Both the position numbers and the translations under genes were made by a program. Positions 6,552 through 11,624 of a stretch of DNA of 64,000 nt are shown in pieces (position 1 is the first letter of the stretch; the number at the start of each line of letters is the position of its first letter). The notes under the pieces were generated by a model. It ran no database searches and was not told where the DNA came from. It saw only the letters and a program-made list of their open reading frames with translations. The stretch lies in the sequence record PZ357121.2; one strand, given 5' to 3'. The stretch comes from a phage.

Positions 6552-7022
6552 TTAATCATGTTTCCACACCCCATCGGTATTTGACCAAAGTCGCTGATTA
6601 TCTGATCCTCGCCACAGCTTTTTAGTCGGAAGATTTTTCTCATACTTCCCATCAATAATAACATCAACATATTTAAGCATTTCTAGTTGTTTAATATCTT
6701 CAAACTTATATCCTGTCCACAACCAAATGCTTTTATTGGGATAAAGATTTTTTACTGTTTGAGCAATGCAATGAATAACATCTCGGTTATCAGGATAGAG
6801 AGGGTCACCTCCGGTTATAGTTAATCCTTCTATATAATCATTATTCAAACATTCAATTAATTGTTCTAGTGTTTCACCAGTGAATGGAACACCATTTCTA
6901 GCATTCCATGTTGATTTATTATAACACCCTTCGCATTTATGCAAACAACCTGTAACGAAAAGAACGACCCTGCATCCAGGACCATTCACAAAATCGCAAG
7001 GATAAAATCTATCATAATTCAT
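6552..7022 (-). CDS. nrdG: anaerobic ribonucleotide reductase activating protein NrdG (radical SAM)
   Basis: 156 aa; CxxxCxxC motif GCLHKCEGC; lies directly downstream of nrdD. Confidence 0.9.
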   Translation of the reverse strand: MNYDRFYPCDFVNGPGCRVVLFVTGCLHKCEGCYNKSTWNARNGVPFTGETLEQLIECLNNDYIEGLTITGGDPLYPDNRDVIHCIAQTVKNLYPNKSIWLWTGYKFEDIKQLEMLKYVDVIIDGKYEKNLPTKKLWRGSDNQRLWSNTDGVWKHD

Positions 7023-8310
7023 TGGTGTTTAACCCTATGCATGATTTCTTTATTTTTACCGAGATTAAATCCGCGTTCGTTCGGATTTCCCAAATAACCA
7101 CATGTTCTTCTTATTGTGTTCATCTTTTTAGGATCAGTTTCTCCACAAACTGAACAAACAAATCCGTTTTCAGTAGGAGTCATTTCATGGGTACTTCCGC
7201 ATGTAAAACATTTATCTACTGGCATATTAACACCAAAATAATCTAAATGTTGTGCAGCATAATCCCATACGGCCTCAAGACCTTTTAGGTTATTTTTCAT
7301 ATCAGGAAGTTCAACATAAGAAATGTGACCGCCGGTCGCTATGAAATGATATGGCGCTTCACGAGAAATCTTTTCAAACGGAGTAATATTTTCTTCTACT
7401 GAAACGTGGAAACTGTTAGTGTACCAGCCTTTATCGGTAACATCCTTTACACTTCCATATTTTTCTGTATCGAGTTTACAGAAGCGATAACAAAGGTTTT
7501 CAGCAGGAGTCGAATATAAACTAAAAGCAAAACCGGTTCTTTCAGTCCACTGCTTAAGATGAGCATTCATTTTAGTTAAAATTTCTTGTCCAATATCACG
7601 ACCGACAAGAATATTCAATTCGTGAATACCAATGTATCCTAAGGACACTGAACTTCTACCGTTTTTAAATAACTCAATTATATCGTCATCAGGTTTAAGA
7701 CGAACCCCGAATGCACCTTCTTGGTAAAGAATAGGAGCAACAGTCGCTTTAACACCCTTTAAAGAACTAATTCTACACATCAAGGCTTCAAAACACAGAT
7801 CCATTCGTTCATTAAACAACTCGATAAATTTCTGTTCATTGAACTGTGTTCCAATATAAGAATCTAATGCGATGCGAGGAAGATTCAGCGTTACAACACC
7901 GAGATTATTACGTCCATCAAGAATTTCATTACCAGTCGAATCTTTCCATACGCTCAAGAAACTACGGCAACCCATTGGAGAAACTGGAACTGAAGAACCG
8001 GTAATAGCTTTATTATTCTTAACCGAAATAATGTCAGGATACATTCTTTTGCTTGCGCATTCTAACGCAAGTTGTTTAATATCATAGTTCGGATCATCTT
8101 TATAAAGATTAACACCTTCTTCAACAAACATAACAAGTTTAGGAAAAATAGGAGTTATTCCATCACGACCAAGACCTTTAATGCGGTTTTTAAGAATTGC
8201 CTTCTGAATAATTCGTTCAGTCCAGTCAATTCCCGTACCAAATGTAATTGTCACAAAAGGCGTTTGTCCATTAGAGCTGAAAAGTGTATTTACTTCATCA
8301 TTATATTCAG
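7019..8310 (-). CDS. nrdD: anaerobic ribonucleotide reductase NrdD, exon 2
   Basis: glycyl radical motif RRTCGYLGNP and zinc ribbon CFTCGS...CSVCGE at C-terminus; exon boundary inferred at about 8310. Confidence 0.85.
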
Positions 8311-9343
8311 CATGAGTCGCAAATTCATGCCCGTTTATATGAAACAACAAAATTTGGATAGTCCATAGATATGCAACGTTCTTTTATAGTGCTAGGATGA
8401 AAATTTAGCGCTTTAGCTGCTTCTATATAAGACGTATACTTAATACCGTCAACAACCACATATTCAGGAACTTTATGAATAGTAGTCTTAATACTCAAAA
8501 CAAGAGGATGAGTTTCGACTTCACTTTCAGTGCAATTTAAATATTCCGCTGCTTTTTTAAAACTTCTAAAAGTTTTATTTTTAAGCTTTATCGATACTTG
8601 TTTTTTACTTTTTCGACTATTGATATTATTTTGCACATGTTCCTTAGATCTTCCGTTTTTAGCATAATATTCAGCTACAGAAGATTTTATATTGTTTTTA
8701 TGAGATTCGGATAACACTTTACCCTTATGAGCATCTCTTAATTTTTGAATATGTTCTTCAGTATCCGGATGCTTATAAAACTTTTTACCGCCTATGGATT
8801 TATTTAAACATTTTTTGCTATAAAAATATTTACGTATGACCTCTTCTTCATGTTTTAATGCATCTTTATAACTATCAAATGTTTTTAAAATTATCCATTT
8901 AGTAGGTGTATCAGTTTTTAAGCGTTCATTTATATACTTAGATGACGTTGTGTAAGTTTTCCAGTTTGTGGGCTTGTTTTTAATTGTTCTAAATTTTTTA
9001 TAACCGATATAAATGTCACCATTAGAAAACTTAACTAAGTATGTAAATGCGTCTTTATCTTTTATTTTAGTACAACGTCTTTTTATCCATTTCATTGTTT
9101 CACCTCGTATTCATAAGATAATCTTATTTATACAAGATGACTGCTGCATGTCGCCATGCAGATTAGACTATATCTTCATCTTTCGATGCCGGCCGTTTCG
9201 AATAGCATTAGCTTCTATTCTACACCGCTACATTCATCACGGTTAGTCGTTAGGCATTTAGTTCAAAAGAACATTTAGCACGGGATTGTCTACTAGAGAG
9301 GTTCCCCGTTTAGACCGGTTTTACATGAGCCTGAATTAAATTA
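8311..9343 (-). mobile_element. group I self-splicing intron in nrdD (sunY-type), about 1033 nt, carrying a homing endonuclease ORF
   Basis: nrdD reading frame is interrupted; exon 1 ends ...TATGAGT followed by TAATTTAATTCAGG; conserved group I core GGTCTAAACGGGGAACCTCTCTAGTAGACAATCCCGTGCTAAAT at about 9255-9300; ORF sits 3' of the core; boundaries +/- a few nt. Confidence 0.8.
8325..9095 (-). CDS. I-TevII: intron-encoded GIY-YIG homing endonuclease, I-TevII-like
   Basis: 256 aa; N-terminal FTYLVKFSNGDIYIGYKK; NUMOD3-like repeats; C-terminal helix-turn-helix-like tail; GAGGTG before ATG at 9095. Confidence 0.75.
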   Translation of the reverse strand: MKWIKRRCTKIKDKDAFTYLVKFSNGDIYIGYKKFRTIKNKPTNWKTYTTSSKYINERLKTDTPTKWIILKTFDSYKDALKHEEEVIRKYFYSKKCLNKSIGGKKFYKHPDTEEHIQKLRDAHKGKVLSESHKNNIKSSVAEYYAKNGRSKEHVQNNINSRKSKKQVSIKLKNKTFRSFKKAAEYLNCTESEVETHPLVLSIKTTIHKVPEYVVVDGIKYTSYIEAAKALNFHPSTIKERCISMDYPNFVVSYKRA

Positions 9344-9881
9344 ACTCATACGCCTGGAATGCATCGTATACGTCTTTTTCTGTTTTAGATTGGGCATAAT
9401 TCAACGCATCAGCGATTTGCCATTTTTCTGCATCCTCAATATGTTTTGCATAGGTGCGTTTAACATAAGGAGAAAGAACTTTATCGACATTCGCAAATGT
9501 AGTTCCACCATACTGATGCGAAGCAACTTGTGCAGTAATTTGTGCCATAATTGCAGTAGCAACACCAATAGATTTAGGCGTTTCAATTTGAGCATTGCCG
9601 AGCTTAAATCCGTTTTCAAGCATTCCTTTTAAATCTACTAAACAGCAATTAGTAAAAGGCAATGATATACTGTAATCTAAATCATGAAAATGAATTAATC
9701 CAACATTATGGGCATTTACAATATGACTTGGAAGAATACGACAAGCGATATGTTTAGAAACAATACCGGCCATTAAATCTCTTTTTGTTGGAAAGACGCG
9801 AGAATCTTTGTTGGCGTTTTCTGTATTTAATTCTTTATCTTTATTTGAAATAAAATTTAAAACATCTTTTTCTAAAGACAT
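9344..9881 (-). CDS. nrdD: anaerobic ribonucleotide reductase NrdD, exon 1
   Basis: N-terminal 179 codons of NrdD (…NENANKDSRVFPTKRDLMAGIVSKH…FTNCCLVDLKGMLENGFKLGNAQIETPKSIGVATAIMAQ…); frame runs into intron stop at 9336. Confidence 0.85.
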
Positions 9882-10693
9882 AATTCTAATTTATCCTTTT
9901 GAAATTCTTCGTCTAAATATGGGTTCCAACCCATTTTAAACCTTTTGATGAAATTATCAATTCTAAATTTCGGTAAGTTTAAATCCGCAAAAATAGATGA
10001 TTTACTTTTAAAATCTGGACTTAAATAATCATATAAAATTTCTGCGTATTTTAACCATAATATACAAGTACCAGATTTAATTGCTCTCGGAGTTTTCCAA
10101 GGTTTTACACCATACATCGGATTTCCACTTCCTTTATGCCTGATAGAAGATGAAATTCCAATTTTAATTTTAGCTTCCTTTGTATGCGAAAATCCACGAT
10201 GTGGATTTTCTTTCCAGTATTTTTTAGAAGCTTCTGATATTTTCTTTCTGGCTAAATTAGTATGATGCTTTCCATAAAATCCATGATTTTTGCCTTTATT
10301 ACGATTTCTTTTAATCATGGTTATTGATTGCTTTTCTCTAGTTTCTTTAGAAGGAGAAATACCATATGTCGTAAATTGGCCATCAGCATATGCTAAATTA
10401 AAATACTCTTTATTCCATACATCTTTTTCTATATTCTTTTGAAATTCAGCTTCAATGCTAGTTATTTGTTCATCTCCGACTAATTGAAAATATAATATCT
10501 CAACTTTCGGCGTTTCTTTCAATAAGGCTTTTTGAAATTCGGAAGATGACGAAGACGAATAATAAAATTTACCATTTTTATCAATAATATTCGTTCCGTC
10601 AAAAGTGCAATTGGTTTTACTTCCAATGTAATAATATGGCGGGGTTTTAGCATTAATTCTACTAATAAACGATAGTTTATATACTACATTCAT
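9872..10693 (-). CDS. free-standing GIY-YIG family homing endonuclease-like protein (Seg-like)
   Basis: 273 aa; N-terminal VVYKLSF...PPYYYIGSKT; NUMOD3-like repeats (KETREKQSITMIKRNRNKGKNHGFYGK, HTKEAKIKIGISSSIRHKGSGNPMYG). Confidence 0.6.
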   Translation of the reverse strand: MNVVYKLSFISRINAKTPPYYYIGSKTNCTFDGTNIIDKNGKFYYSSSSSSEFQKALLKETPKVEILYFQLVGDEQITSIEAEFQKNIEKDVWNKEYFNLAYADGQFTTYGISPSKETREKQSITMIKRNRNKGKNHGFYGKHHTNLARKKISEASKKYWKENPHRGFSHTKEAKIKIGISSSIRHKGSGNPMYGVKPWKTPRAIKSGTCILWLKYAEILYDYLSPDFKSKSSIFADLNLPKFRIDNFIKRFKMGWNPYLDEEFQKDKLELCL

Positions 10694-11163
10694 TTTAAAC
10701 TCTTTCTAAGCTGCTTTTTGAATGAAGCTATTAATTGTGTTTTAGTATCAGATTCATTATATTCAAATCCTCTTTGAAGCATCTCGGCCATCATTTCCTC
10801 TTTACCTAGTCTCGAGAACTCTTTAGTTTTGTCTGGAACAAAATTAGGATGGATATTATTATCAGAATAATCTTGTTTCAAATAAGCAAGAAGAGCTTCA
10901 AGCCATTCGAGGTAGTTGACATCACGGCCTTTAAGACCGGAACGGTTGAACTTATGCTTCATTTGACCTTCTGCTGCGTTGCACAGATTACAGAGTAACC
11001 CACGAACTCTACCGGCTTTTGGCCCGTTTAATTCGTGGTCGTGGTCAAGATGGTTACCTTGAACATCAGGGTCTAATTCACGGTGGCAAATAGGACACTT
11101 ACCGTTCTGTGCATCATAAAATTTTTGTTTTTCTTCTTTATATTTTGCGCCTGATAATAACAT
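10690..11163 (-). CDS. 49: recombination endonuclease VII gp49
   Basis: 157 aa; zinc-binding CPICH and CNLCNAAEG motifs; strong similarity to my recollection of T4 gp49. Confidence 0.9.
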   Translation of the reverse strand: MLLSGAKYKEEKQKFYDAQNGKCPICHRELDPDVQGNHLDHDHELNGPKAGRVRGLLCNLCNAAEGQMKHKFNRSGLKGRDVNYLEWLEALLAYLKQDYSDNNIHPNFVPDKTKEFSRLGKEEMMAEMLQRGFEYNESDTKTQLIASFKKQLRKSLK

Positions 11164-11198
11164 GATAAACCCTTACCTTAAATAGATAAGGGTATTTA

Positions 11199-11624
11199 TT
11201 AACTTAAACGTCTTTCTAAATATTCAATGTATTCTGCGGCTGCTTGCATCAGGTTACCTTCATAGCCGTCGTTATTTTCTTGTCCAGCTAATTTAGCTAA
11301 TGCATAAGAAATTCGTTCACCTTCGAATTCACCAAGTTTACTACCTAGCACATCCGCAATATCAGCCGAATCAATTTCTTCGAGTTCATCTATTGAATGT
11401 GATTCCCAGAAGCACCAAAGAGAAGTATCACGGTCATAGATGCAAAGTTTCTCACCAGTGTTCAACATCACTTCAATAATGCCATGGTCGCCATAACCAT
11501 CTTCGGTCGTAGTACCAATTACCTTGATGATTGTTCCTTTCTTTAATTCAGGAAACTTGACTTGTAGTTCTTCATCTTCTTTAACAATCTTGAACCATTT
11601 ACCACGTGTGTCAGAAATATTCAT
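11199..11624 (-). CDS. hypothetical protein at the position of T4 pin (identity to Pin not established)
   Basis: ORF track 187 aa; ATG at 11622-11624 (MNISDTRGKWF) with GAGGA 8 nt upstream gives 141 aa. Confidence 0.45.
   Translation of the reverse strand: MNISDTRGKWFKIVKEDEELQVKFPELKKGTIIKVIGTTTEDGYGDHGIIEVMLNTGEKLCIYDRDTSLWCFWESHSIDELEEIDSADIADVLGSKLGEFEGERISYALAKLAGQENNDGYEGNLMQAAAEYIEYLERRLS

Follow-up and report, generated by a model that had tools for sequence, protein, structure and literature searches.

A probable SegG-type homing endonuclease gene at the 49/nrdD junction of a Mosigvirus-like phage and its linkage to a foreign nrdD 5' end

The DNA analyzed here, in the following called the window, is a stretch of 64,000 nucleotides (nt) of the phage sequence record PZ357121.2, and the subject of this report is a free-standing gene of 273 amino acids (aa) located between gene 49 and nrdD, which probably encodes a homing endonuclease related to SegG of phage T4. 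The window is ~96% identical over 21.8 kb to its best matches, the Mosigvirus phages JK36, ATK47/48, JK42 and mar005P1, which places it with the Mosigvirus-like phages and not with T4. In the six-frame list of open reading frames (ORFs) the gene is found at 9872-10693 on the minus strand, and it is part of one co-oriented block consisting of gene 49 (endonuclease VII; 10690-11163), the endonuclease gene, nrdD exon 1 (9336-9881), an intron ORF (8325-9095), nrdD exon 2 (7019-8350) and nrdG (6552-7022), all on the minus strand and, for the neighboring genes, assigned from the ORF list and Pfam. The start of the endonuclease gene and the stop of gene 49 overlap in the sequence ATGA (10690-10693, minus strand), and in nuclease-free phages the nrdD start uses the same ATGA context at the gene 49 stop. 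At its 3' end the gene overlaps the nrdD start by 10 nt (9872-9881, minus strand), and an AAGGA is located within the endonuclease gene 13 nt upstream of the nrdD ATG. In T4 the gene is absent, nrdD and gene 49 overlap by 4 nt and no gene is located between them. An earlier note on this DNA had described an additional free-standing endonuclease gene not present in T4, which is correct given that gene 49 directly abuts nrdD in T4; the comparison with T4 thereby stands as regards the absence of the gene, although the genome itself is Mosigvirus-like rather than T4.

The predicted protein is composed of three parts. The N-terminal part (aa 1 to ~108; 10370-10693, minus strand) is a SegG-type GIY-YIG catalytic domain, in which V3-V4-Y5 corresponds to the GIY motif and Y21-Y22-I23-G24 to the YIG motif and which moreover contains E81 and N99. 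Next come a linker that bears NUMOD3 DNA-binding motifs (aa ~118-190; 10124-10342, minus strand) and a SegG-type C-terminal domain (aa ~195-266; 9896-10111, minus strand), which carries the motifs PWKTP...W and FKMGWNPYLDEEFQK, is presumed to bind DNA and is modeled with low confidence (predicted local distance difference test, pLDDT, below 50). In Pfam the NUMOD3 family PF07460 was matched with E 6.3e-07 and 29.7 bits compared to a gathering score of 20.4, in two stretches with the best one at aa 130-153; a third, degenerate copy at aa ~113-130 was recognized by eye only. Of the NCBIfam models, TIGR01453 'group I intron endonuclease' reached only 22.9 bits, which is below its cut-off of 56, and in PHROGs aa 1-125 fall into a 'homing endonuclease' family (3e-34).

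The closest characterized relative is T4 SegG. Residues 1-126 are 40% identical to T4 SegG (BLASTP E 6e-27), and tblastn of the endonuclease resulted in matches with E 3e-17 to many records annotated as segG. The C-terminal ~75 residues match the C-terminus of P0004 with 38% identity (E 6e-14); P0004 is a protein of 212 aa encoded between genes 59 and 32, i.e., at the position of SegG, and is itself 40% identical to T4 SegG from end to end. In the alignment, T4 SegG (210 aa) has no counterpart of the NUMOD3-bearing linker, which comprises ~65 additional aa. The N-terminal match to SegG together with the C-terminal match to P0004 therefore identifies the endonuclease as a SegG paralogue with an inserted NUMOD3 linker, and it is filed as a paralogue and not as a SegG orthologue because it is located at 49/nrdD and not at 59/32.

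An alpha/beta fold of the GIY-YIG type is detectable in the endonuclease. The GIY and YIG motifs are placed on two N-terminal beta strands, and the YIG motif aligns with that of I-TevI, SegD and SegE. In 14 SegG-like N-terminal domains, Y5, R12, P19, Y22, G24, S25, K26, N28, Y44, S47, E81 and N99 are invariant, and the presumed catalytic residues E81 and N99 show little or no variation in three family alignments. Comparison of a SegG-like profile with a profile of canonical GIY-YIG domains (I-TevI, SegD, SegE and others) by hhalign resulted in E 5.5e-05, with N99 aligned to N90 of I-TevI, E81 within one column of E75, and YIG on YIG. In the structure model, the helix that bears R27 in I-TevI is replaced by a beta-hairpin-like insert (aa 27-47). 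Membership in the GIY-YIG family rests on SegG homology, profile-profile comparison and fold. The GIY-YIG-like N-terminus that had been read from the letters alone is thereby supported by the BLASTP match to SegG and by the profile comparison, and the NUMOD3 repeats noticed with it score above the Pfam gathering threshold in two stretches; the description as a GIY-YIG/NUMOD3 endonuclease was right and can be narrowed to a SegG paralogue.

The gene is distributed sporadically. Using megablast, the locus (9300-11200) matched 744 phage records, only 49 of which cover the endonuclease ORF, and the DNA of the ORF alone was found in 50 records, 49 of them full length (97-99.8% identity) and one partial. 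Six of the carrier records are RefSeq/GenBank duplicates, leaving about 43 distinct genomes. Every copy is located between gene 49 and nrdD, so that related genomes either have or lack the gene at one fixed site. Carriers are found in the genus Mosigvirus, with AV112, ST0, JK42 and AV116, as well as in the genus Tequatrovirus, with Lv5cm, fPS-2, Shinka and Lutter. Of the phages that most resemble the window in the flank, JK36, ATK47/48, NBG1 and G53 are non-carriers, and JK42 is a carrier. In the records the gene is mostly labeled 'homing endonuclease' or 'hypothetical protein', in one case (JK42) 'SegG', and literature searches found no paper naming or testing the endonuclease gene at 49/nrdD. 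All 11 nuclease copies tested are intact, the ratio of the proportions of nonsynonymous and synonymous differences (pN/pS) is 0.15, and 26 of 42 variable sites are third codon positions, as expected of a gene evolving under purifying selection.

Protein scans found only two loci in IMG/VR and one in JGI metagenomes, and an IMG/VR scan based on gp49 returned 44 loci with only two carriers. More distant homologues exist at other loci, i.e., P0003 between gp5 and 5.1, P0005 beside a DNA polymerase fragment, and a homologue in PspYZU05 near a recombinase and not at 49/nrdD.

The conserved unit extends beyond the gene. Sliding-window identity showed that all carriers, of either genus, match the window at 96-100% throughout the interval of ~9655 to 10690. 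Next to the endonuclease gene, this interval contains the first ~226 nt of nrdD (~9655-9881, minus strand; NrdD aa 1-~76), delimited by comparing carrier with non-carrier identity. This nrdD segment is 95-100% identical among carriers and 58-82% identical on nt level (~70% over nt 1-226) to nuclease-free alleles; for the protein, aa 1-85 of carrier NrdD are 66% identical to T4 and aa 86-180 are 100% identical. In a base-by-base alignment the divergence between carriers and non-carriers is greatest at nrdD nt 121-226 and ends at nt ~226. It is followed by a stretch of ~40 nt that is invariant in all phages, and from nt ~265 onward carriers show the single-nucleotide polymorphisms of their own genus. 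Compared to T4 the block shows pS 0.73 and pN 0.29 and must therefore be regarded as a foreign orthologous segment and not as the product of a few immunity mutations. By megablast the foreign block occurs in exactly 50 records, i.e., in the 49 full-length carriers and in the deletion derivative OLB35, and the linked flank expected of a homing gene is thus found in 49 of 49 full-length carriers. A search for the donor lineage of the block by blastn returned nothing between 95% and ~74% identity, and the best non-carrier matches (~74%) are Citrobacter and Klebsiella phages.

On the other side of the insertion, gene 49 upstream of its last ~100 nt (window 10789-11187) occurs as two allele classes that are 62-86% identical to each other and track the genus and not the presence of the nuclease, the window having the Mosigvirus type. 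Over its last ~100 nt, gene 49 is conserved at 96-100% in all phages compared, creating a sharp mosaic boundary within the gene. The cassette is thereby more alike than its flank between Mosigvirus and Tequatrovirus carriers (96-100% compared to 62-86% for gene 49). Judged from these comparisons, the mobile unit is a segment of ~1.04 kb (~9655-10690) consisting of the endonuclease gene and the foreign first ~226 nt of nrdD, the latter presumably representing a cleavage-resistant allele. The earlier note had proposed mobility and would have been contradicted by the same gene in all close relatives; instead it is present in 49 of ~744 records, as near-identical copies in two genera with divergent flanks. 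It had taken the ORF as the mobile gene, which holds, while the mobile unit is larger and includes the start of nrdD.

Natural variants were found in which the element has decayed or was lost. In the Escherichia phage OLB35 (L062, Mosigvirus, MH992122, 2200-2228) the foreign nrdD block is retained and the nuclease gene is gone. Its NrdD starts with MNVVYKLLYFISNK, of which MNVVYKL corresponds to the first seven residues of the nuclease, fused in frame to nrdD codon ~9, and by its sequence this junction is the scar of an endonuclease-gene deletion at a short TTTATT-like repeat. In the Escherichia phage FL18 (L063, PP400780, 1614-3105) the nuclease ends prematurely at aa ~201 and is joined to the final ~20 aa of NrdD. 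The deletion has removed nrdD almost completely, and a gene similar to SegD/E adjoins nrdG so that two nuclease genes stand back to back; the phage appears to lack the large subunit of the anaerobic reductase.

A third variant, L057, comes from a 4.7 kb contig (Logan SRR27536177, 2188-3180) of a more distant T4-like phage with a gp49 of 64% identity. Its gene order is gene 49, a 55-codon remnant of the nrdD 5' end, a nuclease homologue and a complete nrdD. The nuclease homologue, located at the 49/nrdD junction, is 58% identical and broken by stops and a frameshift. The remnant (codons 1-55) is of the type of L037/L038, the native nrdD allele of that lineage. The complete nrdD is chimeric, its first ~60 aa being nearer to the linked allele of the window (54-67% compared to 39-60%) and the rest nearer to L037/L038. 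Both nuclease-linked alleles share the replacements LLNENANKD to LNTENANKD and PTQRD to PTKRD and the loss of YSPALPF, at positions where no variation is seen among the enterobacterial non-carriers examined. The remnant and the nuclease are joined at an ATGAA microhomology (native ...ATT ATG AAA... and nuclease ATG AAT), and junctions at microhomologies are typical of one-sided, illegitimate double-strand-break repair in T4 (PMC2988022).

Taken together, the ORF is probably a free-standing homing endonuclease of the T-even Seg type, a SegG paralogue, that would cut the 5' part of nrdD in nuclease-free phages. Domain homology, fold, sporadic distribution at the same site, near-identity across genera, strict linkage to the nrdD block, purifying selection and the variants of decay and loss are observed and form the basis of this reading; nuclease activity, target position and expression signals are predicted from sequence. 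Seg enzymes are encoded by free-standing, promoter-less cassettes co-oriented with their neighbors, cut a conserved neighbor gene hundreds of bp away from their own insertion site in phages without them, and enter such phages through break repair, together with flanking markers (PMC2988022). T4 SegG, formerly gp32.1, is the nearest model. It is located between genes 59 and 32, has a catalytic domain of 40% identity and, via P0004, a homologous C-terminal domain, and shows the same geometry of a promoter-less gene that directly precedes a conserved, co-oriented gene; its target is in the downstream gene 32 (PMC2988022 Table 1). The endonuclease described here differs from SegG in its locus, in its size of 273 aa instead of 210 aa with two NUMOD3 motifs in the linker, and in its target, which is presumably nrdD. 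For SegG, Liu et al. in 2003 reportedly found a target distance of 332 bp. A further model is the 'intronless homing' of T4 SegF, in which a Seg gene is inherited with flanking polymorphisms after a cut in the neighbor gene of the nuclease-free phage (PMC2988022). In contrast to the few point differences seen there, the linked flank at 49/nrdD consists of one strongly diverged block (pS 0.73, 34% of the amino acids replaced over 85 codons), which is unchanged in all carriers.

By analogy to SegG/gene 32 and SegF/gene 56, the enzyme would make a double-strand break in the 5' part of a nuclease-free nrdD during mixed infection, with nt ~165 to ~226 as its most likely position. After resection, this break would be repaired from the carrier genome, with crossovers at two places, the conserved final ~100 nt of gene 49 and the invariant stretch of nrdD at nt ~227-265, and the repair would copy in both the endonuclease gene and the linked nrdD 5' end, which the enzyme supposedly cannot cut. 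The break is placed at or downstream of nt 165 because the native sequence is kept up to nt 165 in L057, and since carriers must be immune the site would overlap the diverged block ending at nt 226; in both lineages, the window type and the L057 type, native nrdD sequence resumes by nt ~180-270. The recognition and cleavage site has, perhaps, an even chance of lying at about nrdD nt 165-226, corresponding in the window to 9656-9717 (minus strand), where the diverged and presumably immune version would be found. Among the differences between the two alleles, YSPALPF to YSISLPF and KNMVPSFIMK to CRILPSHIVN are candidates for the presumed resistance. A more far-reaching idea, which we hold only tentatively, is that nuclease and foreign nrdD 5' end form a co-evolved cassette of cutter and immune target, which might have tracked 49/nrdD through at least two distant T4-like lineages (the nucleases being 58% and the linked NrdD N-termini 67% identical) and the fossils of which might map the cut to nt ~165-226.

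Regarding expression, a motif resembling a T4 middle promoter, with the MotA box TGCTTCA, a spacer of 13 nt and TATAAT, was found by pattern matching at 10756-10781 (minus strand). It lies within the conserved 3'-terminal part of gene 49, ~65 nt ahead of the endonuclease start, and occurs with identical sequence in T4, L003 and OLB35, i.e., also in non-carriers. The endonuclease would be transcribed together with nrdD from this promoter in gene 49 and would be translated from the ATGA start context that serves nrdD in nuclease-free phages. The pattern of MotA box and -10 element (TGCTTNA, 10-14 nt, TANNNT) occurs 17 times in the window compared to 6.2 +/- 2.6 expected from shuffled sequences, an excess consistent with many T4-type middle promoters. 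A motif scan detected no TATAAATA late promoter near the endonuclease ORF; in the whole window this motif is not enriched (10 compared to 8.9 expected), and one copy (9125-9132, minus strand) closely precedes the intron ORF. A 'promoter' annotated in phage Lutter was discarded as a candidate, as it merely overlies the start of the endonuclease ORF.

Outside of the cassette, nrdD is interrupted by a group I intron, the approximate ends of which (8305-9345, minus strand) follow from intron-less relatives aligning to ~9346 and resuming at ~8300. The intron ORF (8325-9095) contains the Pfam domains SegE_GIY-YIG and NUMOD1, is ~56% identical to T4 I-TevII and is 100% identical to its counterpart in Salmonella phage Lv5cm. 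The intron ends are 72-87% identical to T4 and the core of the intron ORF only 50-70%. The intron ORF was considered as an unusual feature and dismissed, since the variant is found at full length with at least 99% identity in 44 records; two I-TevII alleles thus circulate at the same intron site. Among the carriers listed, only five phages have the nrdD intron as well, Manna being one of them; the T4-type intron ORF is found in G8 and fPS-2 and the variant in Lv5cm, F26 and the window. Given the few carriers with an intron and the two different intron-ORF variants, intron and endonuclease gene assort independently. The ~50 nt of exon on either side of the intron (9339-9388 and 8251-8300) are closest to Lv5cm (98% and 92%, compared to 78-96% for the others compared), a pattern that short co-conversion tracts arising in intron homing could explain. 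Finally, the nrdG/nrdD junction (7019-7022) contains no gene in the window, mobC in T4, and Seg-like GIY-YIG genes in Lv5cm, fPS-2 and FL18. By these comparisons there are three separate nuclease sites around nrdD, i.e., the nrdG/nrdD junction, the intron and the 49/nrdD junction, bearing out the suggestion of the earlier note that the region is a local hotspot of mobile nucleases.

Several observations weigh against the assignment as an active, nrdD-cutting homing endonuclease. No Pfam GIY-YIG family (PF01541 or PF19835) was matched by the endonuclease ORF at E<=1, phmmer of the endonuclease against PDB sequences resulted in no match, Foldseek with the whole endonuclease model was not significant, and the hhalign probability of the GIY-YIG profile match is only 66%. 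For the canonical catalytic Arg, R27 of I-TevI, the endonuclease has no aligned residue, and neither have T4 SegG, SegD and SegE in the same alignment, of which SegG and SegE are listed as active enzymes (PMC2988022 Table 1); that R12 or K26, both invariant in the family, might take its place is no more than a guess. The OLB35 record is flagged UNVERIFIED in GenBank, and L057 is a single short-read metagenomic contig with a broken nuclease copy and a junction at the ATGAA microhomology. On its right side the foreign block ends at one boundary common to all carriers; this boundary therefore records one ancestral acquisition, and it could reflect where homology resumes rather than the cleavage site. 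Furthermore, the promoter-like motifs are consensus matches only, and a generic scan for sigma-70 promoters gave a number of hits compatible with chance (12 compared to 9.7 +/- 3.2 expected) and no terminators. The missing Pfam GIY-YIG match and the missing counterpart of the Arg fit a protein that does not cut at all, e.g., a non-cutting DNA-binding protein that is an inactive or domesticated passenger, inherited vertically and repeatedly lost. The decayed or deleted copies in L057, FL18 and OLB35 also agree with such a passenger, as does the independent assortment of the intron, which leaves no long co-conversion tracts visible. We nevertheless consider a passenger very unlikely. T4 SegG, which is listed as an active enzyme (PMC2988022 Table 1), has the same set of motifs. 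Moreover, the gene is under purifying selection, close relatives differ in its presence or absence, and vertical descent cannot explain why the Mosigvirus and Tequatrovirus copies are 97-100% identical next to a gene 49 of 62-86% identity.

The shared right boundary bears in addition on where a homing endonuclease would cut. If its target were the intact 49/nrdD junction, which is destroyed by the insertion in every carrier, the foreign nrdD segment would be a hitch-hiker from the donor and not an immunity allele, and the one boundary common to all carriers could mark the first possible crossover, as the right edge of the block adjoins the first nrdD stretch that is invariant among distant T4-like phages. 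This is unlikely in our view, because characterized Seg enzymes including SegG cut well inside the neighbor gene and not at the insertion (PMC2988022) and because L057 keeps native nrdD codons 1-55 and a native 49/nrdD junction upstream of the nuclease, which argues for a break downstream of nt 165. Linkage in 49 of 49 carriers with no recombinants within 226 nt is also less expected of a neutral hitch-hiker, though 70% identity would itself suppress recombination. A role of the nuclease that mainly helps the phage, either by excluding the nrdD region of competitors (marker exclusion) or by mobilizing the nrdD intron in trans, is somewhat less improbable but still doubtful. Seg and Mob enzymes cause localized marker exclusion (PMC2988022), MobE mobilizes the nrdB intron in trans (PMC2988022; PMC2790892), and the predicted cut site is only ~320-370 bp away from the intron insertion site. 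However, both effects are consequences of homing and not alternatives to it, and the gene is not linked to the intron, which is present in only five listed carrier phages and with two intron-ORF variants. Under the favored reading of a homing endonuclease cutting nrdD, breaks at nrdD might possibly drive trans-mobilization of the intron ~350 bp away, or a loss of nrdD as in FL18.

Other homing endonucleases are known to occupy or target the anaerobic reductase genes, such as T4 mobC at the nrdG/nrdD junction and I-TevII in the nrdD intron. SegH of phage U5 is likewise said to be a homing endonuclease at the nrdG/nrdD junction. These differ from the gene described here in their insertion sites and in their proteins, mobC being of the HNH type. 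Compared to I-TevI, the gene is not intron-encoded, the R27 helix is exchanged for the hairpin-like insert of the model, and the DNA-binding modules are NUMOD3 and the SegG C-terminal domain, whereas I-TevI uses a zinc finger, a minor-groove helix and a helix-turn-helix.

As a summary, the analysis adds an uncharacterized and unnamed Seg-type endonuclease and an insertion site (49/nrdD) absent from T4 to the catalogue of the T-even phages. The kind of element is already well known; with it, nrdD is now flanked or interrupted by three independent nuclease sites. For annotation this means that 'SegG' labels at 49/nrdD indicate paralogy and not orthology, and that a chimeric nrdD 5' end marks the presence of the element in these phages and should not be taken for sequencing noise. 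The reading makes the specific prediction that nuclease-free nrdD would be cleaved at about nt 165-226. Finally, the public genomes cover the whole life cycle of this one element, from recent invasion across genera and a fixed cassette of cutter and presumably immune target to a frameshifted copy joined by illegitimate repair, a truncation with loss of a host gene and a deletion scar.

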